Assembly: GCA_964592855.1 (NCBI GenBank)
Contig: CAZQKI010000002.1
Coordinates: 4,356 to 68,355, forward strand
DNA from: an uncultured Lentisphaerales bacterium
Lineage (GTDB): Bacteria > Verrucomicrobiota > Kiritimatiellia > RFP12 > JAAYLN01
DNA length: 64,000 nucleotides
Direction: 5' to 3'
A model generated the notes under the pieces. That model worked only from the letters and a program-made list of their open reading frames with translations, searched no databases and had not been told where the DNA came from. A program made the translations under genes and the position numbers. Positions 14,095-61,802 of the stretch are shown one piece after another; positions within the stretch are counted from its first letter, which is position 1, and every line of letters begins with the position of its first letter.

Positions 14095-14291
14095 TACCTG
14101 TCTACTCGAGAATGCGGTCTTGTGAACAGAGCTTCTTGCGTTTCGACCATTTCCATGCTCAAACTCAGTCTGATGCCCGGTGAGCCGCATTATTTGCGGC
14201 GCGGGCGGCACCGTGCCGGACGGTGCTCCAATTCAACTGCCGTCGCATTTGCTCCCGCGTTCTGGCACGCTTTGTGCGTTTATTATCCCGC

Positions 14292-19746: not shown

Positions 19747-19747
19747 T

Positions 19748-20425: not shown

Positions 20426-20428
20426 GCC

Positions 20429-35129: not shown

Positions 35130-35197
35130 TGGTTGACAACTGCGGCAATCCCCCCGGAGGCGCCGGCCAGCGGCGCCTCCTCGAAAAGGATGTGAAC

Positions 35198-37420
35198 ATG
35201 ATTTTACCGAGACTGTTTTCCGGCCCGCTGCGCGTGGCCGCGTTGTTGCTGTTAGCCTTGTCGGCCGGAGCCGTGGATGTCATGCCCTCACGGGATGAGA
35301 TGCAGGCGCCGATCGACATCGAGGCGGATTCGTTTTCGGCGGAGATGGACGGATGGGTCGACGCCGCCGGCAACGTCCGGGTCCGTCAAGGCGATACGCA
35401 AGTCACCGCGGATCGGATCCGCGTGAACCGGACCACGGGCGAGATCAAAGCCGACGGGCATGTGATCCTGATCCGCCGGGGGCAGGTCGCCACGCGGACG
35501 GAGCGCCTGGTCTACAACTACAAGAGCGGCGAAGGACTGACGCCCTCGGTCGACATGCAGGTCGGCGCCTTCCGCGTGATCGCCAAGGATGCGGTCCGGA
35601 AGCCCGACGCCACCTTCAGCCTGCGCAATACCGTTGTGACCACCTGCACCAATGCGCTGGGGTCGCTCCATTACCACGTGCGTGGCAGGTCGGCCTCCAT
35701 GCGCCCGAACGAGTATGTGGCCGTTTCCGGCGTCGTCCCCTATTTCATGGGGGTTCCCTTCTTCTATTTCCCCTATTGGCGCCGTGAACTGGACGAGCAT
35801 TACGGGTGGCGCTTCGAACCCGGCTATGAATCCGACTGGGGCGCCTTTCTGCTCGCCACCTACAAGTTCAAGCTGATCGATTTCGGGGGCAAGTTCAAGG
35901 ATAGCCTCGATTCGCGCTCGCATTTCGACTACCGCACCGAACGCGGCGGCGCGATCGGACAGGATGTCCTCTGGCACTTTGGCGAGCCGGAGGCGGGTCA
36001 CAAGGGTTTTGTGTCGGCCTACTTCCTGGCCGATGACAAGCCGATGGACGCCAACTGGGATCGCGATCCGACCCGCGACATCGTCGAGGATTCGCGGTAC
36101 CGGTTGACCTTCCGGCATGATTCGCACCTGTCCGACCGTGATTTCCTGACCTTGCGCACGAGCTATTTGAGTGACAGCTATCTGCTGGAGGATTTCTACG
36201 AGGACGAGTACCGCGACCTCCGCCAGCCGGAGTCCTATGCCGCCTATACGCACACCGGAAACGGCTATTCGTTCGGACTGGGCGCCTATCAGCGCATCAA
36301 CGATTTCTTCGAATCCGTGAACCGCCTCCCCGAAGCGTGGCTCGATGTTCTCCGCACCGATATCGCCGGGTCGCGCTTCTACTACGAAAGTCAGACCCGC
36401 GGCGGAGCGTTGAAGCGGGAGTTTGCCGACTATGGCCTGCCGACGAACACCGTGGCCGAGGCGTATGACACCGTGCGGCTCGATTCGCGCCATGCGATCT
36501 ACATGCCCAACACCCTCTTTGGCTTTCTGAGCGTGGTGCCGCGCGCCGCCTACCGGGGGACCTACTATGGCGACACGTTCAAGGACCTGAGCGACGAGCC
36601 CAGCTCATCAACCAATGCGCCCGCGACAAGCCTCCTGATCGAGGATGGGGCGGCTCTGCGAAATCTCTTCGAGCTTGGACTCGAGAGCTCCTTCAAGGCC
36701 TACGGCATCTATCAGGACGAGGCCGGCCGCATCCGCCACATCGTCGAGCCGTACATGAACTACACGTTCGTGCCGGAGCCCAACCTGCGGCCCTTGCAGC
36801 TCCTGCAGTTCGACGACGTCGATGAACTGGACAAGGAACACAACGTCCGCTTCGGCATGCGCCATCAGATCCAGCGCCGGATCGGCCCCGCGATCCGCGT
36901 CCTGCTGGATGCCGACCTCTACGGCATCTATGACATCGAGGACGCCAACGACGAGTCGAAATTCCGCCTGGTCGGTTTGGAGAGCCGCTTCCGACCGACT
37001 GACGGCATTCGCTTCCAGTTGGATGGAACCTACGACGTGGAGGCGTCCGAGATCAATGAAATCAACGCCTGGGTCACCCTCTGGAACCATGAATTGTGGG
37101 AGGCGTCCGGTGCCGTCTTCTATCGCCCCGACGCCAGCGTGCTGTTCGCCGGAAACCTGACCTATGCGCTCACCGAGCGCTGGACGGTCAACATCTACTC
37201 GCGCTACGAGGCCGAGACCTCGCGGCTCGAAGAGCAGTCGGGCTACCTCCAGTACAATCTCGACTGCATCTCCCTCCGGCTGCGCGGCAGCGTCTTTCCC
37301 GGCTTCACCCGCGACGACGGCTCGGAGCTGGAGACCAAGTACAAGATCGCTTTCTACGCTTGGTTGCGCGCCTACCCCTCGGCTCCGAAGGAACGCATGC
37401 GTGGCCATCGTGACATCTAG
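35198..37420 (+). CDS. lptD: LPS-assembly protein LptD-like outer-membrane protein (OstA family)
   Basis: Signal peptide (MILPRLFSGPLRVAALLLLALSAGA), OstA-like N-terminal beta-jellyroll (VRVRQGDTQVTADRIRVNRTTGEIKADGHV), large Tyr/Phe-rich beta-barrel C-terminal region. Start at the internal Met, 23 codons into the listed ORF. Confidence 0.6.
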   Translation: MILPRLFSGPLRVAALLLLALSAGAVDVMPSRDEMQAPIDIEADSFSAEMDGWVDAAGNVRVRQGDTQVTADRIRVNRTTGEIKADGHVILIRRGQVATRTERLVYNYKSGEGLTPSVDMQVGAFRVIAKDAVRKPDATFSLRNTVVTTCTNALGSLHYHVRGRSASMRPNEYVAVSGVVPYFMGVPFFYFPYWRRELDEHYGWRFEPGYESDWGAFLLATYKFKLIDFGGKFKDSLDSRSHFDYRTERGGAIGQDVLWHFGEPEAGHKGFVSAYFLADDKPMDANWDRDPTRDIVEDSRYRLTFRHDSHLSDRDFLTLRTSYLSDSYLLEDFYEDEYRDLRQPESYAAYTHTGNGYSFGLGAYQRINDFFESVNRLPEAWLDVLRTDIAGSRFYYESQTRGGALKREFADYGLPTNTVAEAYDTVRLDSRHAIYMPNTLFGFLSVVPRAAYRGTYYGDTFKDLSDEPSSSTNAPATSLLIEDGAALRNLFELGLESSFKAYGIYQDEAGRIRHIVEPYMNYTFVPEPNLRPLQLLQFDDVDELDKEHNVRFGMRHQIQRRIGPAIRVLLDADLYGIYDIEDANDESKFRLVGLESRFRPTDGIRFQLDGTYDVEASEINEINAWVTLWNHELWEASGAVFYRPDASVLFAGNLTYALTERWTVNIYSRYEAETSRLEEQSGYLQYNLDCISLRLRGSVFPGFTRDDGSELETKYKIAFYAWLRAYPSAPKERMRGHRDI

Positions 37421-45791: not shown

Positions 45792-46676
45792 TCAGGGTTT
45801 GCTCAGCAGGTCTTCGAAAGGGCGGAGGACGGCGCTGGCGTAGTCGCCGGCGTAGGTCCCGTCCAGAAAGCGCGGGTAGGCTTCGTCGTGAAACCGCTGC
45901 CACGAGGCCGCTTCGTCGCCGGGCAGGATCGGATAGAAATGCACGCCGCAGGTTCGGGCAGCCTCACGGTCGCCAATGGCGTCGCCGATCATCAGCACGC
46001 CCGTGGCCGGATAGCGCCCGCCGTTGGCCAGTTGCAACTGCTGGGTCTTGCTGCCCTGTTCCTGTCCGGCCATGCAGGGCACGAGGCGGTCGATGCCGTG
46101 CTGCTGCCACTCGCGCCGGAGCGCGGCTTCGGGGGTCTGGGAGATCACCACCCGGTCGCTTTTCGTTGCCAGCAGCTCCAGGCTGCGCCGGACCCAGGCG
46201 AAGAGGGGGACAGGCTCCATGCGGGTGTCGATGTCGTGGCTGAGCGCCCGGCTCCAGGCGAGGACATGGATCAACTCGGTATCCTGCGTCCGTTCGACCT
46301 CCGCGGCCAGCGTGGCGTCGCCGAGCGTCTGCATGGAGTCGCAGTAGCGCCGCAGCGCGGCGAAGTCCGGCAGGGCGATCCCGCTTTGCCGGATGGCCGG
46401 TTCGCGCGCCAGCGCTTCAAAGAGCCGGACGAGGTTGGGAAACCGGTTGCTTCCACGGGTGCGAGAAAAGAGATTGATGTGCTCGATATGCCTGAGCACG
46501 AGATCGGCGATGGCCTCCAGTCCCCACCAGCGGATGATGAGCGGGGCGAAGTGATTGCGCTGCTTGATCCCCATGGTGTCGAAGACGCAGCCATCCGAAT
46601 CAATGCCGACAAGTGTCTCGTGCTGTTTCGGGGGCGGAGCGAAGCCATCGGCCGGTTGGATTGAGGAGGGGGTCAT
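45792..46676 (-). CDS. HAD superfamily hydrolase
   Basis: HAD motif I GIDSDGCVFDT near the N-terminus, motif IV-like MIGDAIGD near the C-terminus. Confidence 0.6.
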   Translation of the reverse strand: MTPSSIQPADGFAPPPKQHETLVGIDSDGCVFDTMGIKQRNHFAPLIIRWWGLEAIADLVLRHIEHINLFSRTRGSNRFPNLVRLFEALAREPAIRQSGIALPDFAALRRYCDSMQTLGDATLAAEVERTQDTELIHVLAWSRALSHDIDTRMEPVPLFAWVRRSLELLATKSDRVVISQTPEAALRREWQQHGIDRLVPCMAGQEQGSKTQQLQLANGGRYPATGVLMIGDAIGDREAARTCGVHFYPILPGDEAASWQRFHDEAYPRFLDGTYAGDYASAVLRPFEDLLSKP

Positions 46677-49204
46677 GGCGCGGGCGGGTTCAGGGGCTCA
46701 AGTTCGAGGGCGATGACGCGGATGGGGATGTGGCGGTGGTAATGGTACTCCAGGCGCAACGGAAGCCCGCCGTCGTAGTCGAACTCGCAGGAGACGGGGA
46801 TGCCGGCCCGAACGGGAGCATGGCCGATAACCGTTCCCGCCTGCCCGATTGTGATGGCCCGCAGATCGCCCTCGGCGCGGTCGGCATCGTTTGGCGTTGT
46901 GGCTTCCGTGATCAGCGTGGCACGGTAGCGTCCTGCCGGGAAGGGGAGGTCGGGGCCGTACAACACCAGCCCCTGCAAGACGCGGAGAGGGTCGATATGG
47001 ATGCTCCCCGTGATGACGTCGGTTGCGCCTTGGTGGAAGAAATCCGCCGCCGGCCAACGATAGCGTCCCTCCTGCAGGGGGCCGGCACCATCGCCGGCGA
47101 ACAGCAGGGCATGTTCCAGCCTCGGCTGCCCCGATGTGACGCGCCACGTGTCGCCGTGGGGTGACGACAGGGGGGTCTCCAGCCAGGTGGCTGCGGCGGG
47201 GATTGCGAGGGTTGTGCCGCTGCTGGAGAGGAGCGTGCCGCCGCCGGAAACCCGCATCAGGTAGCGGAGGTTCGGCGCCCGTGGTGCCGGGGTCCGCATC
47301 GTGAGCGGAAAATCGAATTGCATGTCGGCAATGCCGGGTTGGGTATTGAATGCCCATTGTCTGGACGGCCAGTAGCGGGGCGGGCCCCACAGTTCGGGAA
47401 TGTCGGCTGCATCGTGCGGGTTATCCCGGATCACAAAGCTCCGAATGGGGCCTTCGGCGGCAAGCGGATCGAGCCAGGGATTCTGCAACAGGCCCCGCAG
47501 TGCGATGGCGGACGGGAAGAAACTGCCCCTCGTGGGATAGGGCTGCTCGTGAAAGATGATGTAGCGCACGGAGAGTGCCTTCAGGGCGGCCAACTGCTTT
47601 TCGGCAAGAACGCCGTGATTGAGACAAGACAGCGGTTCGACCACGCGTTTGAGATACCGCTTGGGGACGGCCGGGCTATAGCCGTTGAGCAGGCGGACGT
47701 GCGAGCGGATGATCCCATATTCGTATACCGACGAAAAATGGGATTCGCCGGGCCATAGCGGAATGGCCAGCGCATACGGTTGCCCCAACCGCTGTTCGTC
47801 CGCATGTGTGGCGATTGCTTCATAGGGCGGCATGTCCTTGGGCAACGAGCAGAGACCGATGCGGAACCACAAGGCCGATTCCACGAAAATCAGCGAACCC
47901 AGCAGGACGAAAATCCCCATCAGACACCTTTTCCACACCCTTGACCAGGCGGGCCTCTCCGCAAAGAGCAGAGCCAGTAGAATGGTCAGCAGCGTGGGCA
48001 TCAGACAGAAGATCTTGGTCGTCTGGCGGATCATCGTGAACTTATGAAGCACACTGCGCGCGAGTTTCAGCGGCAAGCCCGAAAAAGGACCATTCACGCC
48101 CAGGGATACCAATATGGTTGCCAGGATTCCGAGTGTGACAATGATCAATAGCCAGTCGGGGTGAGCCGCGCCTTTGCCTTGCTGTGGCACGGTCGCTGCC
48201 CGCGAGCGTGCCTGCAGTTTGCTGACACCCTTCAGCGCATACCCGAAGACGATCAGCGCGGTCAGTGAAGCGCCGAAATAGATATGGTTGGAGTATCCCA
48301 GCGGGCCCCAGTATAACAGCCCGCGTAGTATCGGCGAACACAGCTTCACGTCATTCCAACTTCGGCCGTGGGCCACGTCGGAGCCTGACAGGTGGCGGCT
48401 GGACAATACGCTCAGCCCCGCAGCCAATGCGGCACAGATCAGCGTCGGCAGGAGGGCGATGAAAGTTGCACGGATGCGGGGCCAGGTGATGTCCAGCGGC
48501 TTCGCCTCCGTTCCCCAGGCGATGGCGCACCAGAACGGCGTGAGGAGTGATGCGAAATAGAAGCAGTGGAGATCCGTGCCATAGGCGCCGAGTAGGGTTA
48601 GTCCGGCCAGGAAACCGCCCGAGGGACGGTGGTCGCGGACCGCCTGGTCGAGGCCGACGATCAGCCAGGGAAGCAGGCCCATGCCAAAGCCCGTCGGGCT
48701 CCCGCCCAGCAGCGTGATCCAGCGAAAAGGGAAGGCGGTGACAATGAGCGCGATGGCCAGGGACAGCCAGCGTGAGTTTGCGTAGCGTTGAGCCAGTGCA
48801 AAACAGCCGAAGATTCCGAGGAGGACCGACGCCAATCCCGCCAGATTCCAACCTGCAGGGTCGCCCAGCCAGGGGGATGTCGCGGCAAAAATGAGCGAGA
48901 AGGGGACATAATAGGGACTGAAGTGTGCCTGGCGCGAGTCGTTCCCCATGTTGAATTCATAGACGTTGTTGAAGGGAGGTGTCTTTCCCGCCAGCATGTC
49001 GCGCGCCAGCCAGAAGTGGTAGTAGAGCTGGAGATGGTCGCCGGGGTTCAATTCCATGAACTGGGACATGGAGATGTGGAGGCGGTCGGTCGAGGGAATG
49101 GTGTCGTTGAAATGCAATGGCAATGGCCAGGTGATCAAGGCCCAGATCATGAGGCCGCCAAGAAACAATGCAATGCGGGAGGATGTTATTGAAGTCATGG
49201 TCAA
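46673..49204 (-). CDS. Large polytopic membrane protein (GT-C-like / YfhO-like), hypothetical
   Basis: At least 12 predicted TM segments in the first ~550 aa, then a ~290-aa soluble C-terminal domain. ATGA overlap with the downstream HAD gene. Confidence 0.5.
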   Translation of the reverse strand: MTMTSITSSRIALFLGGLMIWALITWPLPLHFNDTIPSTDRLHISMSQFMELNPGDHLQLYYHFWLARDMLAGKTPPFNNVYEFNMGNDSRQAHFSPYYVPFSLIFAATSPWLGDPAGWNLAGLASVLLGIFGCFALAQRYANSRWLSLAIALIVTAFPFRWITLLGGSPTGFGMGLLPWLIVGLDQAVRDHRPSGGFLAGLTLLGAYGTDLHCFYFASLLTPFWCAIAWGTEAKPLDITWPRIRATFIALLPTLICAALAAGLSVLSSRHLSGSDVAHGRSWNDVKLCSPILRGLLYWGPLGYSNHIYFGASLTALIVFGYALKGVSKLQARSRAATVPQQGKGAAHPDWLLIIVTLGILATILVSLGVNGPFSGLPLKLARSVLHKFTMIRQTTKIFCLMPTLLTILLALLFAERPAWSRVWKRCLMGIFVLLGSLIFVESALWFRIGLCSLPKDMPPYEAIATHADEQRLGQPYALAIPLWPGESHFSSVYEYGIIRSHVRLLNGYSPAVPKRYLKRVVEPLSCLNHGVLAEKQLAALKALSVRYIIFHEQPYPTRGSFFPSAIALRGLLQNPWLDPLAAEGPIRSFVIRDNPHDAADIPELWGPPRYWPSRQWAFNTQPGIADMQFDFPLTMRTPAPRAPNLRYLMRVSGGGTLLSSSGTTLAIPAAATWLETPLSSPHGDTWRVTSGQPRLEHALLFAGDGAGPLQEGRYRWPAADFFHQGATDVITGSIHIDPLRVLQGLVLYGPDLPFPAGRYRATLITEATTPNDADRAEGDLRAITIGQAGTVIGHAPVRAGIPVSCEFDYDGGLPLRLEYHYHRHIPIRVIALELEPLNPPAP

Positions 49205-50513: not shown

Positions 50514-51424
50514 AGACGGATCAGGTCGGCGTGGTCCGGGTCGTCGTGCGGGTTGATGTGGATCATGACATCGCCGACGCTGGGATCGGCCGCGAAGATC
50601 TTCTGCTTCACGATTGTCGCGATCTCGTGCGAGTGCTGCACGGTCATGGCAGGATCCATTTCGAGCTTGAGATCCACGATGATGTACTGCCCGGAGCGGC
50701 GTCCGCGGATTTCATGGACATGCTCGACGCCGGCCACGGCCGCGGCCAGCAGGCTGATGGCGTTGAGATGCGTTTCCGGCAACGCCGCATCGATGAGGTC
50801 ATGCGTCGCGTTGCGCATCGTTTCGATGCCGACATGCGCGATCATCAATCCCGTGATGCCGGCGAAAATGGGGTCGAAGATCGGCCATCCCAAAAACGCC
50901 GCACCGCAGCCGATGAGCGTGCCGATCGAGGTGATCGCATCTTTGCGGTGATCGTGGGCGAGGGCGCTCAGGACCGGGCTGTAGAGCCGGTCGGCCCTGC
51001 GGAATGTCAGGCGGGCCAGCCACTCCTTGATGGCGATCGTCAAGGCGGCGACCCCGACGGTCAGCACGTGCGGGCGGACGCTGGCGCCGGCGGCAACGGC
51101 GGTTATCGAGGTGTAGAGGATCCAGACGCTGGTGAAGATGATGACCAGCCCGACCATGAACGCACCCAGGCTCTCCGCCCGTCCGTGGCCGTAGGGGTGG
51201 CGGCGGTCGAAGGGCTGCCGGCTGAAGCGGAGCATCGCCAATGAAGCGGCCGAGATGGCCAGATCGCACGCGCTTTCGATGCCATCGGCAAAGAGGGCCT
51301 CGGATCGGCCGACGTGACCGACCAGCATCTTGCCGATCATCAAAATGCAGTTCACCGCCAGGCCGATGCGAACCATCGCTTCGGCTTGGTGAAAGCGCTC
51401 CTGGCGTTTGAGTTCGGCAGTCAT
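50510..51424 (-). CDS. Cation diffusion facilitator family transporter
   Basis: CDF signature in TM2 (SEALFADGIESACDLAISAASLAML), HD motifs in TM5 (LALAHDHRKDAITSIG) and C-terminal cytoplasmic domain. Only the last 304 codons of the listed 700-aa ORF; the upstream part is an Arg/Gly-rich artefact overlapping the real upstream gene. Confidence 0.8.
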   Translation of the reverse strand: MTAELKRQERFHQAEAMVRIGLAVNCILMIGKMLVGHVGRSEALFADGIESACDLAISAASLAMLRFSRQPFDRRHPYGHGRAESLGAFMVGLVIIFTSVWILYTSITAVAAGASVRPHVLTVGVAALTIAIKEWLARLTFRRADRLYSPVLSALAHDHRKDAITSIGTLIGCGAAFLGWPIFDPIFAGITGLMIAHVGIETMRNATHDLIDAALPETHLNAISLLAAAVAGVEHVHEIRGRRSGQYIIVDLKLEMDPAMTVQHSHEIATIVKQKIFAADPSVGDVMIHINPHDDPDHADLIRL

Positions 51425-52797
51425 CAGTTGTTCAGGCTGTGAATCGGTGCGGGAATGTGTCCGCCGCGCCGCACAAAAGCCTCGCCTCCACAGGGACAGG
51501 CGGGCGTGGTCACCGTGCCGGCTCCGAACAGCCCGCCGAAATCGACGTGATCGCCCTTGACCGCCCCGGGCACGGGGATGACGCGCACGCCGGTCGTCTT
51601 GCGGTTGGCCATGCCGATGGCCGCCTCGTCCATGATGATCCCCGCGATTGTCTCGGGCGTCGTGTCGCCGGGCAGCAGGATCATGTCGAGCCCCACCGAG
51701 CAGACGGCGGTCATGGCCTCGAGCTTCTCCAGCGTGAGCGTCCCCTGCGTGACGGCGTCGGAAAGGACGTGGTCCTCCATGACGGGGATGAAGGCGCCGG
51801 AGAGTCCGCCCACCGCGCTGGAGGCGAATGCGCCGCCTTTCTTGACCGCGTCGTTCAGCAGCATGACGGCGGCGGTCGTTCCCGGGGCGCCGACCTTCAG
51901 GACGCCCATGGCCTGGTAGATCTCGCCGACGCTGTCGCCGACGCGGGGCGTGGGGGCCAGCGACAGGTCGACCACGCCGAAGGGGACGCCGAGCTTGATG
52001 GCCACTTCGCGCCCGATCAGTTCGCCGGTGCGGGTGACGCGGAAGGCGGTGTGCTTGATCTCCTCCGCCACCTCGTCCAGCGTGGCGTCGGGATGCTCGC
52101 GGAGCAGGCGCTCCACGGCGCGCTTGACCACGCCGGGGCCGCTGACGCCCACGTTGATCACCGTGTCGGGCTCGCCGGCGCCAAGCATGGCGCCCGCCAT
52201 GAAGGGATTGTCCTCGGGCATGTTGGCGAATACGACGATCTTGGCGGTGGCGAAGCCCTTTTGCGCAGCGCTGGCGGCGGCCGTGTCCACGATGGTTTGC
52301 GCGACGGAGAGGATGGCATCCACATTCATGCCCGCGCGTGTCGTGGCGACGTTGATGGACGAGCAGACGCGCTTCGTGCGCGTCAGCGCCCGGGGGAGCG
52401 AGGCGATCAGGGTGCGTGCGCCGGGCGTCATGCCTTTGTGGACCAGTGCCGAAAAACCGCCCAGCAGGTCGATGTTGACGGCGTCCGCCGCGCGGTCCAG
52501 CGCCTCCGCCAGCAGCACGGCGGCGTCGACGTCGTGGTCTTCGAGCAGCACGCTTGCGGGCGAAATGGCGATGCGCTTGTTGACGATGGGGAGGCCGTAG
52601 CGGTCCGAACACAGGTTGCAGACAGGCACCAGATTCCGGGCGCAGTCCACGATCCGCGCGTAGACGGCCTCCGCCTGCGCCACGGGATCGCGTCGCGCGC
52701 AGCGGTTGAGGTTGATGCCAAGGGTCACGGTACGGACGTCCAGGTGTTCCTCCTGAACCATGCGAAGCGTGCCGAGAATGTCCTTTTGTCTGAGCAT
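51424..52797 (-). CDS. UPF0210 (DUF711) family protein
   Basis: ~457 aa, Gly/Ala-rich. Resembles the UPF0210 family, which is typically encoded next to an ACT-domain protein, as here. ATGA overlap with the CDF gene. Confidence 0.55.
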   Translation of the reverse strand: MLRQKDILGTLRMVQEEHLDVRTVTLGINLNRCARRDPVAQAEAVYARIVDCARNLVPVCNLCSDRYGLPIVNKRIAISPASVLLEDHDVDAAVLLAEALDRAADAVNIDLLGGFSALVHKGMTPGARTLIASLPRALTRTKRVCSSINVATTRAGMNVDAILSVAQTIVDTAAASAAQKGFATAKIVVFANMPEDNPFMAGAMLGAGEPDTVINVGVSGPGVVKRAVERLLREHPDATLDEVAEEIKHTAFRVTRTGELIGREVAIKLGVPFGVVDLSLAPTPRVGDSVGEIYQAMGVLKVGAPGTTAAVMLLNDAVKKGGAFASSAVGGLSGAFIPVMEDHVLSDAVTQGTLTLEKLEAMTAVCSVGLDMILLPGDTTPETIAGIIMDEAAIGMANRKTTGVRVIPVPGAVKGDHVDFGGLFGAGTVTTPACPCGGEAFVRRGGHIPAPIHSLNN

Positions 52798-52823
52798 GTT
52801 TGTGAGTCCCTGGCGCGTGGCCG

Positions 52824-53426
52824 TTAAGCGGGGGGAAGCAGGGCGCCGATGGGGCCGATTTCGTTAGTGGCCCGGAAGATGTTCTCGTGGGCCAGCGTGG
52901 CGGTCAGGCCGTGCAGCGCCATCTGGTCGCGAAAGGCCTGCTGGATGGCGTGGGTGTCGGACGCGGCCGGCAGCGTGACCTGCGCGATGTAGACGACGCG
53001 GTCGTTCTCGACTTCGACCTGCCAGTCGGCGATGTTGACGCCGTATTGCACGAAGAAGTTGCTGATGGCATGAATGGTCCCGGCCTTGTCGGGGCCGCTG
53101 GTGAGGGCGATGAAAGGGTGACCGTCGGGCAGGACGGGCTGTGGCGTCTGGCGGATGGACCGCACGGCGACGGCGGACTCGGTTCCCAGCGCCTGTTGAA
53201 GCGCCAGGGTAAGCGCTGCGGGGGTGATCGGCTTCTCGAGGATCGCCGTGAAGGTCAGGCTGAAGAAGCCGTCGACGATGGATTGGCGGATGCCGCCGAT
53301 GTTCCCTTTGCTGTCGAGGATGACACGGGTGACATCGCGGAGGATGCCGACGCGGTCCGGCAGCAGGATGGTTGCGACAATGGCGTTTGCAGGTTGCATG
53401 GGGTCGGCCCGGTCGTGTGCCGTCAT
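52824..53426 (-). CDS. Tandem ACT-domain protein (GcvR / UPF0237-like)
   Basis: Two ACT-like beta-alpha-beta-beta-alpha-beta units (IVATILLPDRVGILRDVTRVILDSKGNIGG... and FIALTSGPDKAGTIHAISNFFVQYGVNIAD...). Start at MTAHDRADP; alternative start 53399. Confidence 0.6.
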   Translation of the reverse strand: MTAHDRADPMQPANAIVATILLPDRVGILRDVTRVILDSKGNIGGIRQSIVDGFFSLTFTAILEKPITPAALTLALQQALGTESAVAVRSIRQTPQPVLPDGHPFIALTSGPDKAGTIHAISNFFVQYGVNIADWQVEVENDRVVYIAQVTLPAASDTHAIQQAFRDQMALHGLTATLAHENIFRATNEIGPIGALLPPA

Positions 53427-53926
53427 TGGGGAATCAGAACCATGGCCACTTCCGGGCAGGTGAAGGGATTGGCGTGCTTGGTGCAGTTGATGCACCCCAT
53501 GTAGATCTTGTGCATGATCTGGGTCTTGGGGATCTCGGTGAAGCCCAGGGTGCGGAAGAACTCCGGCGCAAAGGTCAGGACGATCAACTGGGAGACTTTC
53601 AGCGGGACGACGTGGTCGATGACCGCCTGCACGAGTTTGCGGCCCAGCCCGGTGTTCCGCCAGTCGCGGAGCACGGCGACGGACTTGATTTCGACGGCCG
53701 TGTGCGAGATGTCGCCGACTTCGGGCAGGATGCTCCAGGCGGCGCAGCCCACGATTTGTCCGTCCTGGTCGGCGATGAAAAAGCGGTCGATGTTCTGGAC
53801 AATGTCGTTGAACGAGCGGGCGATCAGTTCGGCCGGATGATTGCGGATGAGGTCGAAGATGCCGGGCACATCGTTCAAACTGGCGGAGCGGACCAGAGGC
53901 GCGCCGGCGGCTGGTTTTTCTTTCAT
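53423..53926 (-). CDS. GNAT family N-acetyltransferase with C-terminal Cys cluster
   Basis: GNAT motif A (VAVLRDWRNTGLGRKLVQ) and C-terminal CINCTKHANPFTCPE. Only the last 167 codons of the listed 605-aa ORF. Confidence 0.7.
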   Translation of the reverse strand: MKEKPAAGAPLVRSASLNDVPGIFDLIRNHPAELIARSFNDIVQNIDRFFIADQDGQIVGCAAWSILPEVGDISHTAVEIKSVAVLRDWRNTGLGRKLVQAVIDHVVPLKVSQLIVLTFAPEFFRTLGFTEIPKTQIMHKIYMGCINCTKHANPFTCPEVAMVLIPQ

Positions 53927-53979: not shown

Positions 53980-56127
53980 TCAGCGGATGGTCCTGAACTC
54001 GGCTGGCGCGAGGGTGATCACATCGTCCCTGCCGCCATGGTGGAGGTGGAGGGTGTGCGGGTTTTCGAAGTCGATGTTGTAGAGGCAGATTTCGCCGTTT
54101 TCGGGGAAGCAGGTGTAGACGACATGCTGGCATTCCGTTCCCGGAAGCTGTCCGTCGTCGGTGATGTACGTATCGCCCCGTGTTTCCAGGGCGATCTTGC
54201 GGTAGATGGCGCCGATGAAGCCGACGCTGTCGCGCGTGGCGCTCGGGCCGACGTCGCTGTCGAGCGCGCCCGGATATTCCCACACGTTCAGAAAATAGAC
54301 CGTCCCCTTGCCCAGCTTGTGCCGGATCAGCAACGGGGTGAACTGCTCGTCCTCGACGGCGATCACTTCCGTCGCCGGCCCCAGTTCGATGTCGCCGCGG
54401 TGGGTCATGCAGATGCCGAACTTGCGGAAGGGGGAGACGCCCAGCGGCCGGTCGTTGCCCGGCGTGATCGCCCAGTAGAACTGCTTGCCGCGCCCGGTGA
54501 CCTTGACGCCGCAAAGCTCCGAGAAGTCGCCCCCGTGGATGAGTTCGTCGGTGCCGTAGCTGGTGAAATTGCGTGTGGTGTTGGTGGAGAGATGAGGGAT
54601 GGAGATGAACAGGGTCCCGCCTTGGCGGACATAGGCCACCAGCGCCTCGTACTGCTTCGCGGTGCAGGTGTTCCAGCCGGCAAAGAGCAAGGCCGCGTAC
54701 TGCCCGGCGAGGAAGTCCGCGTCGGGATCGGCCGCGAAGCTCACGATGTCCGTGATGCCGTATGGCGTCCCCGAGAGGAAGGGGTTGGGGTATTCGCCCA
54801 GCACGGGCGGCCGCGGGTAGAAGGTCCTGGCAAAGATATCCCAGCTGCGCTCGGGCATCGACTGGAACCAGCGGGCATCCTTGTCCGCCAGGTCGTACTG
54901 GCCGGCGATGACCGCGTTGGGGTGGTAGCCGGGGCCGGCCAGGTCGAGGTTCCCCTTGATGGCCGCAATGCGTGTGGCGGGCTGCCCCGCCGGCGTGCCG
55001 CTGGCCTTCAGGAAGTCGTAGAAGTCGGAGATGCGGCGGCGGTACTCCCGGCAGACGGGGGAGTTGTAGTTGATGTTGAGATAGTGCTTGCGCGCCTCGT
55101 CGACATACGGCGCCGTCAGGTGCGGGTCGTTGGTGTGGATGGGACCCAGGGCGAGCTTGGGCACCTGATGCATCGGCGTGTCCTCGACATGGTCGCTCTG
55201 CTGCCACCAGTTGCCGCTTTCGACGAGCAGGAGCTTGCATCCGCTCATGTACTTCAAATACAGCGAAGCCGTGAGCAACGGCATTTTGAGAAGGCTGGCA
55301 TAGGGCAGGAAGGAATAATGCTCATGGGCGATGTCCGTTCCCCAGATCGGCAGATCGAACTGGCGGTACAGGCCGCGCGAAATCGCGGAGGCGATGTTGA
55401 TGTGCGGAACGGCGAAGTCCTCGACGGCGGGGATTTCGATCCCGCCGATGATTTCGTAGTCCAGCGTGGCGATGCCGCCCGTGACCATCATCTGCGACCA
55501 GCCATCCGCCTTGTGCTTCCGCACGCAGCGCTGCACGCTCTGAATGAAGTTGTTTGCCAGTTGCCGGAGATCGCCGGTCGTCGCCTGCTTGGCCAGGGCC
55601 AGCACGGGATCTTCCTCGGAATTGAGGCGGAAGGTGAAGACCTCGCCGACATTGCAGCCGAGAAAACGGTTCAGATAGGGCTTCATCCGCTTCAGCTGCC
55701 TGGGGTCGGCTTCGGTGTAGATGGTCATCAGCGCCAGATCATTCTCCTCCGCCTGCTTCAGCATGCGGACCAGGCCGGCGCCCAGGCGCTCGGGATGCCT
55801 GCCGATCTCATCCCAGTCGCCCGGCGTGAGGTTCGTGCCGTTCTTCCAGTCGGGCTGTGGAATGGCGAGTCCGAGTTCATCGAGCGCCATGTAGTCGGCC
55901 ATGGCAAGCAGGCTTTGCTTGGTGGCGCCGCCGTCCCAGATGGCCACCAGGTTTCCCTGGTTGTCCTGGATGGTCTGGTTGATGTACCAGGCCGCGTCAT
56001 GATCTTCTGAAACCCAGCTCGTGTAGAAGAGGCCGGAGGTCTGGAAGACCGTATCGCCCCGGTGGAGGTAGACGGGAGTGCCGAGAAAGGTGCCGCAGGC
56101 CGGGAGTTTGGTTTTCGGATGTTTCAT
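53980..56127 (-). CDS. Hypothetical 715-aa protein, possibly a glycoside hydrolase
   Basis: Long, Trp/Tyr-rich, no obvious signal peptide. The segment QYEALVAYVRQGGTLFISIPHL is reminiscent of the GATase-like trimerisation domain of GH42-type enzymes. Weak assignment. Confidence 0.35.
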   Translation of the reverse strand: MKHPKTKLPACGTFLGTPVYLHRGDTVFQTSGLFYTSWVSEDHDAAWYINQTIQDNQGNLVAIWDGGATKQSLLAMADYMALDELGLAIPQPDWKNGTNLTPGDWDEIGRHPERLGAGLVRMLKQAEENDLALMTIYTEADPRQLKRMKPYLNRFLGCNVGEVFTFRLNSEEDPVLALAKQATTGDLRQLANNFIQSVQRCVRKHKADGWSQMMVTGGIATLDYEIIGGIEIPAVEDFAVPHINIASAISRGLYRQFDLPIWGTDIAHEHYSFLPYASLLKMPLLTASLYLKYMSGCKLLLVESGNWWQQSDHVEDTPMHQVPKLALGPIHTNDPHLTAPYVDEARKHYLNINYNSPVCREYRRRISDFYDFLKASGTPAGQPATRIAAIKGNLDLAGPGYHPNAVIAGQYDLADKDARWFQSMPERSWDIFARTFYPRPPVLGEYPNPFLSGTPYGITDIVSFAADPDADFLAGQYAALLFAGWNTCTAKQYEALVAYVRQGGTLFISIPHLSTNTTRNFTSYGTDELIHGGDFSELCGVKVTGRGKQFYWAITPGNDRPLGVSPFRKFGICMTHRGDIELGPATEVIAVEDEQFTPLLIRHKLGKGTVYFLNVWEYPGALDSDVGPSATRDSVGFIGAIYRKIALETRGDTYITDDGQLPGTECQHVVYTCFPENGEICLYNIDFENPHTLHLHHGGRDDVITLAPAEFRTIR

Positions 56128-56209: not shown

Positions 56210-57034
56210 TTACGACTGGCAGCATGGACAGAAGTGCGTGCCGCGCTGGGCGACGACGGACCGCGCGAGAATCGTCCGGCAGCGGGGACAGGGTTGACCG
56301 TCGCGGCGGAAGACGTTGAGATGACCCGCATGTCGCCCGCGGTGTCCGGGCACGCTGTAGAAGTTGGTCTGGCCGCTGCCGAGCGTCGTTCCGGAATGCC
56401 GGACCGCCGCTGCCAGAACCTGGCGGATGGCCCGATGCAGCGCTTTCAGTTCCTGAGGCGTCAGACTGCCCGCCGGTCGCTCCGGGTGGATTCCGGCGAG
56501 CCAGAGCGATTCGTCCACGTAGATGTTGCCCAGCCCCGCCACGACGGTCTGATCCAGCAGCACGGGCTTGATCTTTCGCTTGTGGCGGTCGAGCCGGGCT
56601 TTGAAGCAGGCCAGCGTGAAAGACGCTTCGAGCGGCTCGGGACCCAAGGGCGCCAGCGGATTCACGGTTGGCGAGCAGAGGACGAACCGCCCGAATTTGC
56701 GCGTGTCGTTGTAGACGAGGCGGCGCTGGTCGGTGAAGGTGATGACCACGTGGTCGTGCTTGCCGACCGGCGTGGCGGCGTCGATGAAGTGGAGTTTGCC
56801 GGTCATGCGCAGATGCACCAGCACGCGGGCGCCGTCGTCGAGGTCGAGCACGATGTATTTGGCCCGCCGTCCCACCTGCGCCACGCTGCGCCCGGTCAGT
56901 GCCTGCAGCAGCGCCCGGGGTTTCGCCCCGAAGATCTGCGGACACCGAAGGTCGATCGCGATGATCTGTGCGCCCACGAGCCCATGCGCGATCAGTCCGC
57001 GGACAACAGTTTCCACTTCCGGCAATTCAGGCAT
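56210..57034 (-). CDS. mutM: Formamidopyrimidine-DNA glycosylase
   Basis: MPELPEVETV N-terminus with catalytic Pro2/Glu3, H2TH domain, C-terminal zinc finger CPRC...CPCC. Only the last 274 codons of the listed 740-aa ORF. Confidence 0.9.
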   Translation of the reverse strand: MPELPEVETVVRGLIAHGLVGAQIIAIDLRCPQIFGAKPRALLQALTGRSVAQVGRRAKYIVLDLDDGARVLVHLRMTGKLHFIDAATPVGKHDHVVITFTDQRRLVYNDTRKFGRFVLCSPTVNPLAPLGPEPLEASFTLACFKARLDRHKRKIKPVLLDQTVVAGLGNIYVDESLWLAGIHPERPAGSLTPQELKALHRAIRQVLAAAVRHSGTTLGSGQTNFYSVPGHRGRHAGHLNVFRRDGQPCPRCRTILARSVVAQRGTHFCPCCQS

Positions 57035-57114: not shown

Positions 57115-58383
57115 CTATTCCCATTCGATCGTGGAAGGCGGCTTGTTCGTGATGTCGTAGACGACGCGGTTGACGCCCTTGACCTTCGTTGCGATCTCCC
57201 CGGCCACCTCGATCAGGAACTCGATGGGCAGGGGAACGACCTTGGCTGTCATGAAGTCGGGCGTCTGGATGGCCCGCAGGCAGATGACATAGCCGTAGGT
57301 GCGCGCGTGGTCGGCGACACCGACGGTCTGGACATTGGTCAGCACGGCGAAGAACTGGCTGGACTGCGCCGCATAGCCCTTGTCGTCCATGGCTTGGCGG
57401 AACAGGGCGTCGGCCTCGCGGAGGATGTCGAGTTTGTCCTTGGTCAATTCGCCCAGGCAGCGCACGCCGAGCCCGGGGCCGGGGAAGGGCTGGCGATTCG
57501 TGATGATGGCGGGGATTCCGAGGCACTCGCCGACTTTGCGCACCTCGTCCTTGAAAAGGTATTTGACCGGTTCGACGATCCCTTTGAATGCGATCCGTTC
57601 GGGAAGTCCGCCGACATTGTGGTGCGCCTTGACGGGTTTTCCGCCGTCCCAGCCGCTTTCGATGATGTCGGGATAGATCGTGCCCTGGACGAAGTAGTCG
57701 AGTTCGCCCAGCTTGCCGGCCTCTTCCTCGAAGACGCGGATGAACGCCTCGCCAATGGTCTTGCGCTTGGCTTCGGGGTCGGTCACGCCGGCCAGTTTGG
57801 CCAGAAAGCGGGCTTCGGCGTCGATCACCACGAGGTTGATGCCGAACTGGTTGCGGAAGATATCGACAACTTGCCGGGGTTCGTCCTTGCGCATGCAGCC
57901 GTGGTCGACGAAAACACAGGTGAGCTGCTTGCCGACGGCACGATGGAGCAGAACGGCGCAGACGGAGGAATCGATGCCGCCGGACATGGCGAGCAGCACC
58001 TGTCTGTCGCCGATTTGCGCGCGGAGGTCGACAATGGTCTCGTCGATGAAGCGCTGGATGGTCCAGTCCTGCTTGAATCCGCACGTGCAGACCAGGAAGG
58101 TCTTGAGTGTTGCGGCATCGCAGGCCGCGTGCAGCAGGTCCAGAACCGGGAGAGCCAGCTGGGCGATGTCGGCGGATGCTTCGCGTTTCAGGGTACGTTC
58201 GCCCGCGGCCGCTCCACGCTGGAGGATGAGCGCCTTGGGATTCAACTTCCGGATGCGTTCCAGTGTGGCGGTATAGGGAAGCACCTCGCAATAGATGTTG
58301 AGTTGGCGGACGGCTTTGGCTGCCATCTGGGCGTTGATGGCGCCAAAATCGAGGATGACAACGGTGTCGTGCTGCTTGGACAT
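57115..58383 (-). CDS. guaA: GMP synthase, ATP-pyrophosphatase/dimerisation domains intact, N-terminal glutaminase domain shortened and degenerate
   Basis: PP-loop AMSGGIDSSV, GMP synthase C-terminal domain ending ...VVYDITNKPPSTIEWE. The N-terminus starts like a class I GATase (VVILDFGAINAQ...LNPKALIL) but is ~100 aa shorter than E. coli GuaA and lacks the GxCxGxQ catalytic Cys motif. Confidence 0.75.
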   Translation of the reverse strand: MSKQHDTVVILDFGAINAQMAAKAVRQLNIYCEVLPYTATLERIRKLNPKALILQRGAAAGERTLKREASADIAQLALPVLDLLHAACDAATLKTFLVCTCGFKQDWTIQRFIDETIVDLRAQIGDRQVLLAMSGGIDSSVCAVLLHRAVGKQLTCVFVDHGCMRKDEPRQVVDIFRNQFGINLVVIDAEARFLAKLAGVTDPEAKRKTIGEAFIRVFEEEAGKLGELDYFVQGTIYPDIIESGWDGGKPVKAHHNVGGLPERIAFKGIVEPVKYLFKDEVRKVGECLGIPAIITNRQPFPGPGLGVRCLGELTKDKLDILREADALFRQAMDDKGYAAQSSQFFAVLTNVQTVGVADHARTYGYVICLRAIQTPDFMTAKVVPLPIEFLIEVAGEIATKVKGVNRVVYDITNKPPSTIEWE

Positions 58384-58509
58384 GGAATTGACCTCTTTGA
58401 TTTCGATTCGTTACCAGGTGCCCGGTTCGCATGATCGGGACCAGGACGTTTCTTAAAATCGCATCTTACTGATTGTCATGCTGCCACGACAAGCAAAATG
58501 GCCATGCGC

Positions 58510-59489: not shown

Positions 59490-61535
59490 CTATTCTTCGT
59501 AGCGTCTGACGTTCGCCGTCGCCGCCTTGTTGTCTGAAGTGAAGACGACCTCGTCGATGTTCAGGCCGGGACGGTTGGAAATGAGGGTGCGTTCCCCCGC
59601 GATTTCGACGTCGATGACCGTGGCGCACATCTTGTCGATGCGCTTCACGTTGACGCGGAGCATGAAGGGCTTGTCCATCACGTCGACGTTCTCGATGCAG
59701 AAGTTGTGGCCGTTGAAGTGGAGTCCGTTGTCCTCCGAGGCGCGGAGCCACCAGCAAAGGTTGTCCTTCTGGTCCACCTCCGCGATGGCCTCGCGGACGG
59801 TCATCAGCGTGCGCCAGAACAGTCCGGGCGCGGAGGGGCAAGGCGCGAACTGCGCGCGCTTCCCGCCGAAGTTGAGTTGGAACTCGCAGGACTCCCCGGG
59901 GTTCGTCTTGTCGATGAAGCGCATCGCGAAATGCGCTTGGCCCTTGCCGGGGTCGATCTGAATCTCGTAGTAGCGCGACGCTCTGGACGGAAAGGGCTCG
60001 GTGTAGATTTCGCCCCTCTTGAAGGTCATCGTTTCCGTTCCCTCGACGGGTCGCTCGTGCGAGGGCAGAAGTTCGGCGGGCCATTTCATGCCGAGACGTC
60101 CGCCTTTGTGGAAGGTGAGTTCGCGGAGGATGAGGCAACTGCCCCAGCCGATGCCCTTCAGCCAGCCGCCGATCAGGCGGCGGTTGTCGTGATACGGGGC
60201 GACCATCGGGACGGCGAGGCCGTCGTAGATATCGTAGCCCTCGGCGGCGGAGTTCTCGTAAGACCCGTCTCCCGTCGCGGTCCAGAAGCCGGTAACGCCC
60301 ATGATGAGAAAACGGTGGCCGTTCCACAAGAAGAACGATGGGCACTCGCAGGAATTGCGCATGGGCTCCAGGATGCCGTCGCGCGGGAAGTTCGGGTCGA
60401 GCAGTTTCCAGGGTGACTCGATGTTCGCGGCGCGCCAGGTGCCCTCGCCGCAGTAGAGGTTGATCGATCCGTCGGGATTCGTGTAGACGCTCGGGTTCCA
60501 AGCGTCGTGGATGAACCTGTGCGAGTGCTTGAAGTGCACGCCATCGCTGCTGTACAGGTAGCTCGCGCCCAGGGGAGGAAGGTCAGGGTAGTCTCTCTCG
60601 TCGAGGATACCCATCTCGCCGGTGGCCTTGTACTTTTCCTGAATCGTTCCGATGAGCGTGCGCTCGACCGGGACGACGCGGTCGGTGTGCCAGCCGAAGG
60701 CGAAGATATACTTGCCCTGGTTGTAGCACATCGTGCCGGTGCCGAACGACTGCCAGGGCTCGGTGAGTTCCTGCATCGGACCGTGGTCTGTCCAGTTCAC
60801 GAGGTCGGCCGTGTTGAGGTGGCAGAAGGTGTGCGCGCCCATGCCCCAGCGGCTGCCGTGGTGGCGGCGGTCGTGAAGGTACATCACGTGAAAGACGCCG
60901 TCGTGGTAGAAGCTCACGAAGTCGCCGGCCCAACTGTTGTAACCGTGCGGCATGTAGTACTGGAACGAGGTGTCGAGCTTCTCGGTAACCTTGCGGCGCG
61001 TGATATGCACGGTGTCCGTTGCGACTTCGAGCCCGGCGAGCGTGGCAGTGTCCGCGTCGATTGTGCCGGCAAGCGGGTCGAGCTCGCCGACAGGGAGGTT
61101 CTCGTCCTGAATATCGCCGTCAATCAGGATCTGGAAGCGCAACCCGGTGTAGACGATGGCGATTTCGCGCTTCGCCCAGTTCGTGCCGAGGAGCGGCAGG
61201 GGGATGCCGATGCAGAGGTGGCGCCAGGTCGGGCGGTCGGCGTAACTGACTCGGATTTCCGCTTCAATGAGCTGGCGTCCGCCCCTGTCGTCTGTGAACG
61301 AAGTGTAATTGGCGAGTTGGTCGTCCACTGGGACGGACTTGTATCCCCCCTTGAGGTAGCGTGTGCTGATGCGGAACTGACCGGGGTATTCGAGGAGCGT
61401 CGTGCCGGCGTCGGTCGTCGGATACTTGCCGAGCTTGAAGCGGAACACGAAGCCGTTGCGAATGTCCGCCGCTAACAGGTCGGTGCCGAAGGACATCTTG
61501 CGGAAGTTGTAGCGGTATAGATCTCTTGTGATCAT
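59490..61535 (-). CDS. Glycoside hydrolase, 5-bladed beta-propeller type (GH32/GH43-like) with C-terminal domain
   Basis: NSCECPSFFLW (GH32 EC motif), FPRDG (RDP-like motif), HGYNSWAGDF...YHDGVFHVMYLHD N-terminal propeller blade. No signal peptide. Start at MITRDLYRY. Confidence 0.5.
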   Translation of the reverse strand: MITRDLYRYNFRKMSFGTDLLAADIRNGFVFRFKLGKYPTTDAGTTLLEYPGQFRISTRYLKGGYKSVPVDDQLANYTSFTDDRGGRQLIEAEIRVSYADRPTWRHLCIGIPLPLLGTNWAKREIAIVYTGLRFQILIDGDIQDENLPVGELDPLAGTIDADTATLAGLEVATDTVHITRRKVTEKLDTSFQYYMPHGYNSWAGDFVSFYHDGVFHVMYLHDRRHHGSRWGMGAHTFCHLNTADLVNWTDHGPMQELTEPWQSFGTGTMCYNQGKYIFAFGWHTDRVVPVERTLIGTIQEKYKATGEMGILDERDYPDLPPLGASYLYSSDGVHFKHSHRFIHDAWNPSVYTNPDGSINLYCGEGTWRAANIESPWKLLDPNFPRDGILEPMRNSCECPSFFLWNGHRFLIMGVTGFWTATGDGSYENSAAEGYDIYDGLAVPMVAPYHDNRRLIGGWLKGIGWGSCLILRELTFHKGGRLGMKWPAELLPSHERPVEGTETMTFKRGEIYTEPFPSRASRYYEIQIDPGKGQAHFAMRFIDKTNPGESCEFQLNFGGKRAQFAPCPSAPGLFWRTLMTVREAIAEVDQKDNLCWWLRASEDNGLHFNGHNFCIENVDVMDKPFMLRVNVKRIDKMCATVIDVEIAGERTLISNRPGLNIDEVVFTSDNKAATANVRRYEE

Positions 61536-61802
61536 GAAAACGAGTGCCTTGCGGCAGTTTTCCAATACGCTTCACGGGGAATCCATTCATGATGCCGAGG
61601 CGTTTGATGGATACACATTGATCATCAAGATAGCGCGGCTGGCGGCGGGTGGCAAGGACGGAAGATGAATCGTCATGCAGACTCATTGAAATCACATGCT
61701 GTTCTCACATGCCCGTAATCGAAAGACGCCATCCTGTGCCCCATGAGCGACGTTGAAGGCGATGCGGGCGAGCTGGAGCTCACCGCTGATGAAAGGACTG
61801 AT

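Follow-up and report, generated by a model that had tools for sequence, protein, structure and literature searches.

The gene and the domains of its product

The window analyzed here is a 64,000-nucleotide (nt) stretch of DNA from an uncultured Lentisphaerales bacterium (GenBank assembly GCA_964592855.1, contig CAZQKI010000002.1, positions 4,356 to 68,355 of the forward strand), and the gene of interest within it is a leftward-transcribed open reading frame (ORF) coding for a 422-amino-acid (aa) relative of GuaA, the guanosine monophosphate (GMP) synthetase (GMPS). Recent reviews describe bacterial and eukaryotic GMPS enzymes as two-domain proteins that prefer glutamine as their physiological substrate, the two-subunit forms being archaeal (PMC10526850, PMC9312489, bioRxiv 10.1101/2022.02.27.481963). 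The window protein has an intact synthetase half, consisting of an ATP pyrophosphatase (ATPPase) domain and a C-terminal dimerization domain, preceded by a stub of the glutamine amidotransferase (GATase) domain that lacks the catalytic core (Table 1).

The synthetase half is canonical, as a first-pass annotation made from the sequence alone had proposed. The model for the C-terminal half of GuaA, TIGR00884, matches residues 112-422 end to end with 429.6 bits against a cutoff of 338.75, the best GMP synthetase matches in the PDB have E values of 1e-118, and the ATPPase half is ~50-60% identical to those of solved GMPS; Pfam also matches PP-loop families. All three features expected of a GuaA synthetase are present, namely a PP-loop SGG(V/I)DS, a xanthosine monophosphate (XMP)-binding C terminus KPPxTxE(F/W)x, and the trio DxxES, K-x-HHN, and KD(D/E)V(K/R). 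The roles of the PP-loop, alpha11, lid-loop, and alpha12 motifs have been described (bioRxiv 10.1101/808618; PMC10526850), and the C-terminal signature is that defined for GMPS in PMC9312489. In an alignment of the window protein and 87 relatives (88 sequences), the residues S134, G135, G136, D138, and S139 of the PP-loop are invariant, as are D239, E242, and S243; K252, H254, H255, and N256; K278, E280, and R282; and, at the C terminus, K414, P415, P416, T418, I419, E420, W421, and E422. Because all of the ATPPase and XMP-site motifs are invariant, both XMP adenylation and amination are expected of this protein.

The N-terminal half is quite different. The corresponding GuaA model, TIGR00888, matches only residues 8-82, equivalent to profile positions 1-75 of 188, with 43 bits against a cutoff of 172, and the Pfam GATase model scores 19.4 bits, which is under its cutoff. 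Relative to Neisseria gonorrhoeae GMPS (5tw7), the protein aligns in two blocks, with residues 5-85 corresponding to 11-90 and residues 84-422 to 183-529, and this two-block alignment to solved GMP synthetases indicates an in-frame loss of ~92 residues. The gap spans 91-93 columns in a multiple alignment against full-length GuaAs, so that the first-pass estimate of a region ~100 residues shorter than in single-chain GuaA was close, the measured values being 91-95. It starts exactly at the nucleophile elbow, where the canonical PVLGICYG is replaced by PVLDLLHA, and ends just past the HPE motif; the oxyanion strand I(L/F)(S/T)GGP of canonical GuaA is replaced by ILQRG. The protein thus lacks a complete class-I GATase with a Cys-His-Glu triad and oxyanion GGP. 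With the Cys, His, Glu, and oxyanion glycines all missing in alignments to solved GMPS and to full-length GuaAs, the domain is incapable of glutamine hydrolysis, and glutamine-dependent formation of GMP is predicted to be absent; judged from its sequence, the glutaminase of this GuaA is certain to be inactive, which bears out the earlier suggestion of a truncated, probably inactive GATase. None of the six frames of the window encodes the missing part, in agreement with the first-pass reading: a hidden Markov model (HMM) of canonical GATases matches only the 80-residue stub, and a six-frame search with a full-GuaA HMM finds no second guaA copy there.

These proteins are named "glutamine-hydrolyzing GMP synthase" in databases because the synthetase half alone carries them past the cutoff of the GuaA equivalog model NF000848 of NCBIfam (518.5 bits against 400 for the window protein, with the match split in two stretches). 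The name is a systematic over-annotation. The window protein fits neither a glutamine-hydrolyzing GMP synthase, since the triad is absent, nor an archaeal GuaAB, since GATase residues are present.

Table 1. Parts of the truncated guaA gene and of its product
Feature	Coordinates	Strand	Basis or remark
Whole gene, 422-aa GuaA-like GMP synthetase with truncated GATase domain	57115..58383	-	ATG start; stop codon 57115-57117; ORF list
Shine-Dalgarno-like AAGAGG, 8 nt 5' of the ATG	58392..58397	-	Read from sequence
GATase stub, residues 5-82; beta1-alpha1-beta2-alpha2-beta3-alpha-beta4 of a class-I amidotransferase	58138..58371	-	
Deletion scar, residues 83-89 (LLHAACD); site of the missing GxCxG nucleophile elbow and ~92 more residues including His/Glu	58117..58137	-	Alignment gap columns 103-193
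Last GATase helix, retained (residues 90-100), and interdomain linker to W107/F112	58051..58116	-	Aligns with solved GMPS residues 183-205
N-type ATP pyrophosphatase (PP-loop) domain, residues 112-300	57484..58050	-	TIGR00884
PP-loop SGGIDSS, residues 134-140	57964-57984	-	
Lid-loop motif KAHHNVGGLP	57601-57630	-	
alpha11 motif DIIES, residues 239-243; alpha12 motif KDEVR, residues 278-282		-	
C-terminal dimerization/XMP-binding domain, residues 332-422, ending KPPSTIEWE	57118..57390	-	PF00958 GMP_synt_C, E 5e-34, residues 332-421

A widespread family of truncated GuaA proteins

The truncation is a real and widespread natural variant that defines a large, horizontally spread family. An identical 422-aa protein is present on 13 contigs (from JGI, NCBI, and Logan samples), and a protein search identified more than 100 protein clusters of 411-425 aa with the same gap architecture and 55-99% identity. 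The named sources in that search are metagenome-assembled genomes (MAGs) of Kiritimatiellae/Kiritimatiellaeota, one "Opitutales" MAG, and the isolates Desulfobotulus mexicanus and Desulfobotulus sp. H1. A genome scan, covering one genome per GTDB species, identified this form in Desulfobotulus alkaliphilus and in MAGs that bear the labels Victivallales, Lentisphaerae, Kiritimatiellia, Verrucomicrobia, Desulfobacterales, Bacteriovoracaceae, and Planctomycetota. Judged from MAG names, the source habitats include anaerobic digesters, the (goat) rumen, the termite gut, horse feces, and sediments. At 50% identity, the family is clustered under a representative of greater length, and a search of representatives therefore gives no family count. 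There is no close relative on plasmid records, where every match is below 60% identity.

The window protein and its 87 relatives, here called the delta-92 family, are all 411-425 aa long and have the gap in common; they read PVLD(L/M) where canonical GuaAs have PVLGICYG, and ILQRG where these have ILSGGP. Only nine positions set the family apart from 14 canonical GuaAs. Five of these are in the stub (N17, K23, A51, R56, and D82), with R56 replacing an oxyanion glycine and D82 the first glycine of GxCxG; the other four are L131 and the lid-loop residues G248, K249, and V251. Within the family, conservation of N17, R56, and D82 is 93% or higher, and canonical GuaAs have Y, G, and G at these positions.

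The delta-92 family forms a single clade in a neighbor-joining (NJ) tree without support values, and the Desulfobotulus and Desulfobacterales sequences lie deep inside those of MAGs labelled as members of the Planctomycetota-Verrucomicrobiota-Chlamydiota (PVC) group, a nesting that points to horizontal transfer of the gene. One Kiritimatiellia MAG locus nested within the family (L027) has lost the stub completely and codes for a 331-aa, ATPPase-only protein with the family motifs kept, directly 3' of a 365-aa membrane-protein ORF. The archaeal GuaAB type of organization (~300-330 aa with no GATase residues) is thus found in this nested relative and not in the 422-aa protein.

The stub is a conserved domain

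The stub is a conserved domain under purifying selection and is not decaying. Mean pairwise identity among the 88 members is 61% in the stub, compared with 74% in the ATPPase domain and 69% in the dimerization domain, and the deletion scar is the most variable segment of the protein at 38%. Nei-Gojobori ratios of nonsynonymous to synonymous substitution (dN/dS) for 19 coding sequences, taken over the closest pairs, are 0.04-0.16 for the stub, which is the same range as for the catalytic domains; at ~0.2-0.4, the scar is under weaker constraint than the stub.

An AlphaFold2 (AF2) model built on the family alignment has a mean predicted local distance difference test score (pLDDT) of 85.7 overall, and the stub together with helix 90-100 scores 83-94. 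Helix 90-100 is present in the AF2 models, W107 and F112 of the adjoining linker are invariant, and the only disordered part is the lid loop (residues 236-258). The stub is predicted to fold confidently alone as well as within the full-length protein. In Foldseek comparisons, the model matches two-domain bacterial GMPS with template modeling (TM) scores of 0.86-0.88, compared with 0.64-0.67 for ATPPase-only subunits, and this best superposition of the whole model on two-domain GMPS places the stub in the canonical GATase position.

Contacts between the two domains of resting GMPS provide a possible reason for retaining the stub. Helix alpha1 of the GATase, whose motif is (K/R)(K/R)XRE, packs against the ATPPase helices alpha11 (DxxES) and alpha12 (KD(D/E)V(K/R)); salt bridges link positions 1 and 4 of this motif to alpha12, position 2 touches the catalytic His/Glu loop, and in Plasmodium falciparum GMPS the K24L and H20 mutants halve kcat even with NH4Cl (bioRxiv 10.1101/808618). 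The alpha1 motif of the window protein, within the stub, reads K23-A24-V25-R26-Q27. Position 1 is lysine in 82 of the 88 sequences and arginine in the other 6, position 4 is arginine in all 88, and positions 2 and 5 are variable (A/I/L and Q/S/N, respectively); on the ATPPase side, D239/E242/S243 and K278/D279/E280/R282 are conserved. This pattern suggests that the contacts to the synthetase have been kept and those to the deleted catalytic loop lost. The stub may therefore survive as a structural buttress for alpha11, alpha12, and the lid, as the sequences and the superposed model suggest.

Other glutaminase-defective GuaA proteins

Loss of glutaminase function is not restricted to the delta-92 family. 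The closest full-length relatives, P0108 and P0119, have GIGYG in place of GICYG, exchanging the nucleophilic Cys for Gly. An exhaustive search of 50%-identity representatives gave, among the best 120, 43 canonical GuaAs, 13 full-length ones in which the triad is broken, ~20 whose N termini are shortened or unalignable, and 9 ATPPase-only proteins. The 13 broken-triad proteins, 11 of which have the Cys-to-Gly change, come from many lineages (P0128, P0129, P0133, P0136, P0137, P0144, P0158, P0159, P0181, P0183, P0189, P0205, and P0216). Since the nearest full-length relatives and these cluster representatives are likewise triad-dead or ATPPase-only, glutaminase loss in GuaA is common, recurrent, and tolerated.

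ATPPase-only GuaAs of ~310-335 aa are coded at 32 bacterial loci (within L032-L076), none of which has a GATase ORF within 10 kb on either side. The carriers include Oscillospiraceae, Brooklawnia, Bacilli, Anaerovoracaceae, and other MAGs, with examples at L048 (9803-10939), L046 (9815-10966), and L066 (9938-10915); in reviews, a synthetase that stands alone is reported from archaea only. These loci were retrieved with the pattern VKYLFKDE, and the conservation of KDEVR among them is biased by that retrieval. Other truncations are found in Oscillospiraceae, in Abditibacteriota, in P0106 (452 aa), and in a family of 432-439 aa (P0156, P0278-P0284, P0288, and P0294) whose nearest full-length relatives are in Flavobacteriaceae (Aquimarina, Kordia, and Tenacibaculum). 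This Flavobacteriaceae-related family indicates that truncation is not limited to anaerobes; there are no informative names among the relatives of P0156. Bacteroides probably has a second gene, guaA2, entered in Swiss-Prot as "putative GMP synthase 2". All of these variants are glutaminase-incompetent with an intact synthetase half, as in the delta-92 family, and they form lineages apart from it in the NJ tree (again without support values), with different gap boundaries or no gap at all. Their placement elsewhere in the tree suggests several independent losses of the glutaminase.

Two loci have a pair of GuaAs. In the cultured gut bacterium Subdoligranulum variabile TSDC17.2-1.1 (OY725880.1, L081), a canonical guaA at ~18317-19855, with GICYG...HPE intact, is followed 151 nt on by a truncated guaA at 20007-21293 that codes for 429 aa and belongs to a lineage different from delta-92. 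Truncated GuaAs can thus be paralogues of a canonical GuaA, as in this tandem arrangement. The OY725880.1 record is labelled "plasmid: 46" (215 kb), and two identical tet(W) genes lie 6 and 14 kb downstream. At L080 (GCA_045644025.1, JAZRGE010000019.1), a 507-aa GuaA with a full-length GATase carrying GIGYG (65-1588) and a 333-aa ATPPase-only GuaA (5891-6892) are 4.3 kb apart and 56% identical. A separate curiosity is P0172 (1653 aa), in which an insertion of ~1,100 residues separates the GICYG elbow region of the GATase from its HPE motif, at a site roughly equivalent to the delta-92 gap; the insertion is rich in acetyltransferase-like repeats, as judged by eye.

Proposed ammonia-dependent GMP synthesis and its alternatives

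Taken together, these observations lead us to favor, with moderate confidence, a glutaminase-dead, ammonia-dependent GMP synthetase in which the stub is a structural buttress. The ATPPase and XMP site would adenylate XMP and then aminate it to GMP, probably with free cytoplasmic ammonia as the nitrogen donor. An ancient in-frame loss of ~92 GATase residues would have left ~100 N-terminal residues as a small, four-stranded alpha/beta domain, whose helix alpha1 would clamp the ATPPase helices alpha11 and alpha12 that bear catalytic residues and flank the lid loop. The loss may be an adaptation to ammonia-rich anoxic habitats, and the carriers appear to live in such settings, as suggested by the habitats in the MAG names and by a glycyl-radical enzyme coded in the window. 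The delta-92 enzyme may be the sole GMP synthetase of its host or a high-ammonia isozyme beside a canonical GuaA; its sequence predicts dependence on ammonia in either case.

The chemistry has precedent, in that the ATPPase unit alone yields GMP from NH4+ in vitro, with Km values for NH4Cl of 4.1 mM for the Methanocaldococcus jannaschii subunit, 10.8 mM for the P. falciparum enzyme, 26 mM for Mycobacterium tuberculosis, and 103 mM for Escherichia coli (PMC10526850, bioRxiv 10.1101/2022.02.27.481963). These values also provide the first of several points that weigh against the proposal. The Km of bacterial GMPS for NH4+ is high (26-103 mM), such that efficient use of ammonia would need adaptation, and the sole candidates seen for this are the lid-loop substitutions G248, K249, and V251. 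A glutaminase may be coded elsewhere in the genome, given that archaeal guaAA and guaAB are not necessarily adjacent. A truncated guaA, of a different lineage, does occur in tandem with a canonical guaA in S. variabile, and two variant GuaAs share the L080 contig; an accessory copy would undergo the horizontal transfer implied for the delta-92 gene more easily than would an essential gene present only once. Contacts between the domains, too, are proposed from sequence and whole-model superposition.

The strongest of the alternatives, although an unlikely one, is that the protein serves as synthetase to a separate class-I glutaminase, either GuaAA-like or a shared TrpG/PabA-type subunit, that docks transiently and channels ammonia. 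The first-pass annotation had offered dependence on ammonia and a separate glutaminase side by side, of which the former fits better and the latter is disfavored. Archaeal GMPS does associate transiently from subunits whose genes need not be linked (PMC10526850, bioRxiv 10.1101/2022.02.27.481963), and D279 and E280 of alpha12, which mediate the crosstalk with GATase helix alpha1, are conserved here. However, there is no GATase ORF in the window or within 10 kb on either side of ~80 related loci, and K23 and R26 of the stub account in cis for the conservation of D279 and E280 and would fill the docking surface, the stub lying in its canonical position in the model. Archaeal GuaAB (Pyrococcus horikoshii 2DPL and M. 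jannaschii 6JP9) is likewise a synthetase without its own glutaminase, and on its own it makes GMP from NH4+ in vitro, but it has a dedicated GuaAA partner and no GATase remnant, whereas delta-92 proteins keep a selected stub and have no partner nearby.

Less likely still is an accessory paralogue that does not serve bulk GMP synthesis and is silent or regulatory, for example by heterodimerizing, via its C-terminal domain, with a canonical GuaA whose gene lies elsewhere in the genome. The tandem genes of S. variabile, the paired variants of L080, and the cross-phylum transfer of the family are all in keeping with such a role, an option that the first-pass annotation had not raised, as it had not raised selection on the stub or the size and horizontal spread of the family. 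Nonetheless, catalytic and substrate motifs that are invariant in 88 sequences, with dN/dS of ~0.05-0.15, are unexpected for a pseudoenzyme; 24 delta-92 family loci have no canonical guaA within 10 kb; and the gene of D. mexicanus follows yicC-remA-gmk-spoU, in a housekeeping cluster beside guanylate kinase.

It is very unlikely that the family has been neofunctionalized, with another nucleophile transferred to adenylated XMP or a related nucleotide, or with another substrate altogether. PP-loop ATPPases are versatile, and L131 and the lid-loop residues G248, K249, and V251 are specific to the family, but the XMP-binding signature and the catalytic residues of the lid loop are unchanged, the protein scores above the curated GuaA equivalog cutoff, and five of the only nine family-specific positions are in the stub. 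An artefact or pseudogene, such as the assembly indel that the first-pass annotation proposed to exclude by re-sequencing, or a decaying gene, can be dismissed, with the identical protein on 13 contigs from independent samples, the architecture shared by more than 100 clusters that include isolates, and purifying selection over the full length.

Ammonia-dependent synthesis thus remains our preferred reading, and it sets the delta-92 proteins apart from the bacterial two-domain GuaA (EC 6.3.5.2; E. coli 1GPM, N. gonorrhoeae 5TW7, and Acinetobacter baumannii 7SBC). The two share the ATPPase and dimerization domains with all motifs at ~50-60% identity, and the N-terminal 82 residues and last GATase helix are homologous and occupy the same place in the model, but delta-92 is without the ~92 residues of the GATase core that include the Cys-His-Glu triad and oxyanion motif. 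The first-pass remark that such an enzyme would be unusual for a bacterium is well founded, as it conflicts with the textbook two-domain bacterial GMPS (PMC10526850, PMC9312489), and neither of these sources describes a natural ammonia-dependent form. No description of a natural glutaminase-less bacterial GMPS, or of any of the GuaA variants listed here, was found in the literature searched. In other PP-loop and amidotransferase families, a glutaminase module is present or absent for one and the same reaction, depending on lineage and ammonia supply, as in NH3-dependent and glutamine-dependent NadE and in AsnA and AsnB; the ammonia-dependent forms of these are established enzymes, unlike an ammonia-dependent GMP synthetase.

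More tentatively, and with somewhat less confidence than we have in the function of the delta-92 protein, loss of the glutaminase module from GMPS may be a recurrent, selected, and horizontally mobile bacterial trait. The delta-92 proteins, the other truncations, and the broken-triad and ATPPase-only forms could then constitute an undescribed class of dedicated ammonia-dependent GMP synthetases, acting as sole enzymes or as high-ammonia isozymes. If this is so, it would overturn the view of bacterial GMPS as two-domain and glutamine-preferring, with such proteins systematically mis-annotated as glutamine-hydrolyzing. GMP synthetase is a textbook model of ammonia channelling and interdomain allostery, and the result would surprise GMPS enzymologists, although the protein is a domain-loss variant of a well understood enzyme. 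The family offers a natural experiment on the non-ammonia role of the GATase domain, having kept, under selection, just the part that touches the synthetase. It may also allow guanine nucleotides to be made independently of glutamine in anoxic ecosystems rich in ammonia, among them the rumen, gut, and digesters, where the ammonia route would spare the ATP spent by glutamine synthetase for each GMP. Hundreds of proteins are misnamed as glutamine-hydrolyzing, which misleads metabolic reconstructions of how nitrogen flows in PVC bacteria that are uncultured.

Gene neighborhood and other features of the window

A consensus scan identified no sigma-70-type promoter or intrinsic terminator close to the gene, and an Rfam scan at gathering cutoffs found no riboswitch or regulatory RNA in the whole window. 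Directly 3' of guaA on the same strand is fpg/mutM (56210-57034, reverse strand), coding for a formamidopyrimidine (Fapy)-DNA glycosylase with an H2TH domain and zinc finger; depending on which start codon is used, it overlaps guaA or starts 81 nt beyond it. All four of the closest loci (the window, L011, L017, and L018) have guaA and fpg in this order. Clustering of neighboring ORFs at 22 loci showed no neighbor conserved across lineages and no conserved adjacency to guaB, the shared neighbors being fpg and one 715-aa protein of no assigned family, among the four closest relatives only.

The 715-aa ORF (53980-56127, reverse strand), which is kept beside guaA-fpg in these closest relatives, is one of five large ORFs of 691-843 aa with coding-like GC content at third codon positions and no Pfam match at E<=1e-5; the others are at 59490-61565 (reverse), 46673-49204 (reverse), 35129-37420 (forward), and 11845-14211 (reverse). 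A DJ-1/PfpI protein at 23076-23624 (reverse strand) has a class-I glutamine-amidotransferase-like fold with a Cys nucleophile. It was considered as a surrogate Cys hydrolase for GuaA and rejected, as it is 34 kb away, unlinked to guaA in other loci, and of a different family.

The window is an ordinary chromosomal region of an anaerobe, and it also contains mreB-mreC-pbp2-rodA, yidC, RNase G, hisD, pilus and type II secretion system genes, and the glycyl-radical enzyme. At 51424-53495 (reverse strand), a protein with ACT-domain matches, all flagged faint, adjoins a DUF711 protein; this pair is located 3' of a gene for an acetyltransferase, and the near-identical contigs have the same arrangement. 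Near the left end of the window, a single 570-aa ORF (1800-3512, forward strand) contains both carboxyltransferase halves of acetyl-CoA carboxylase (Carboxyl_trans plus ACCA, a fused accD/accA), and it is followed at 3555-5456 (forward strand) by a gene for a biotin protein resembling the oxaloacetate decarboxylase alpha subunit and pyruvate carboxylase.

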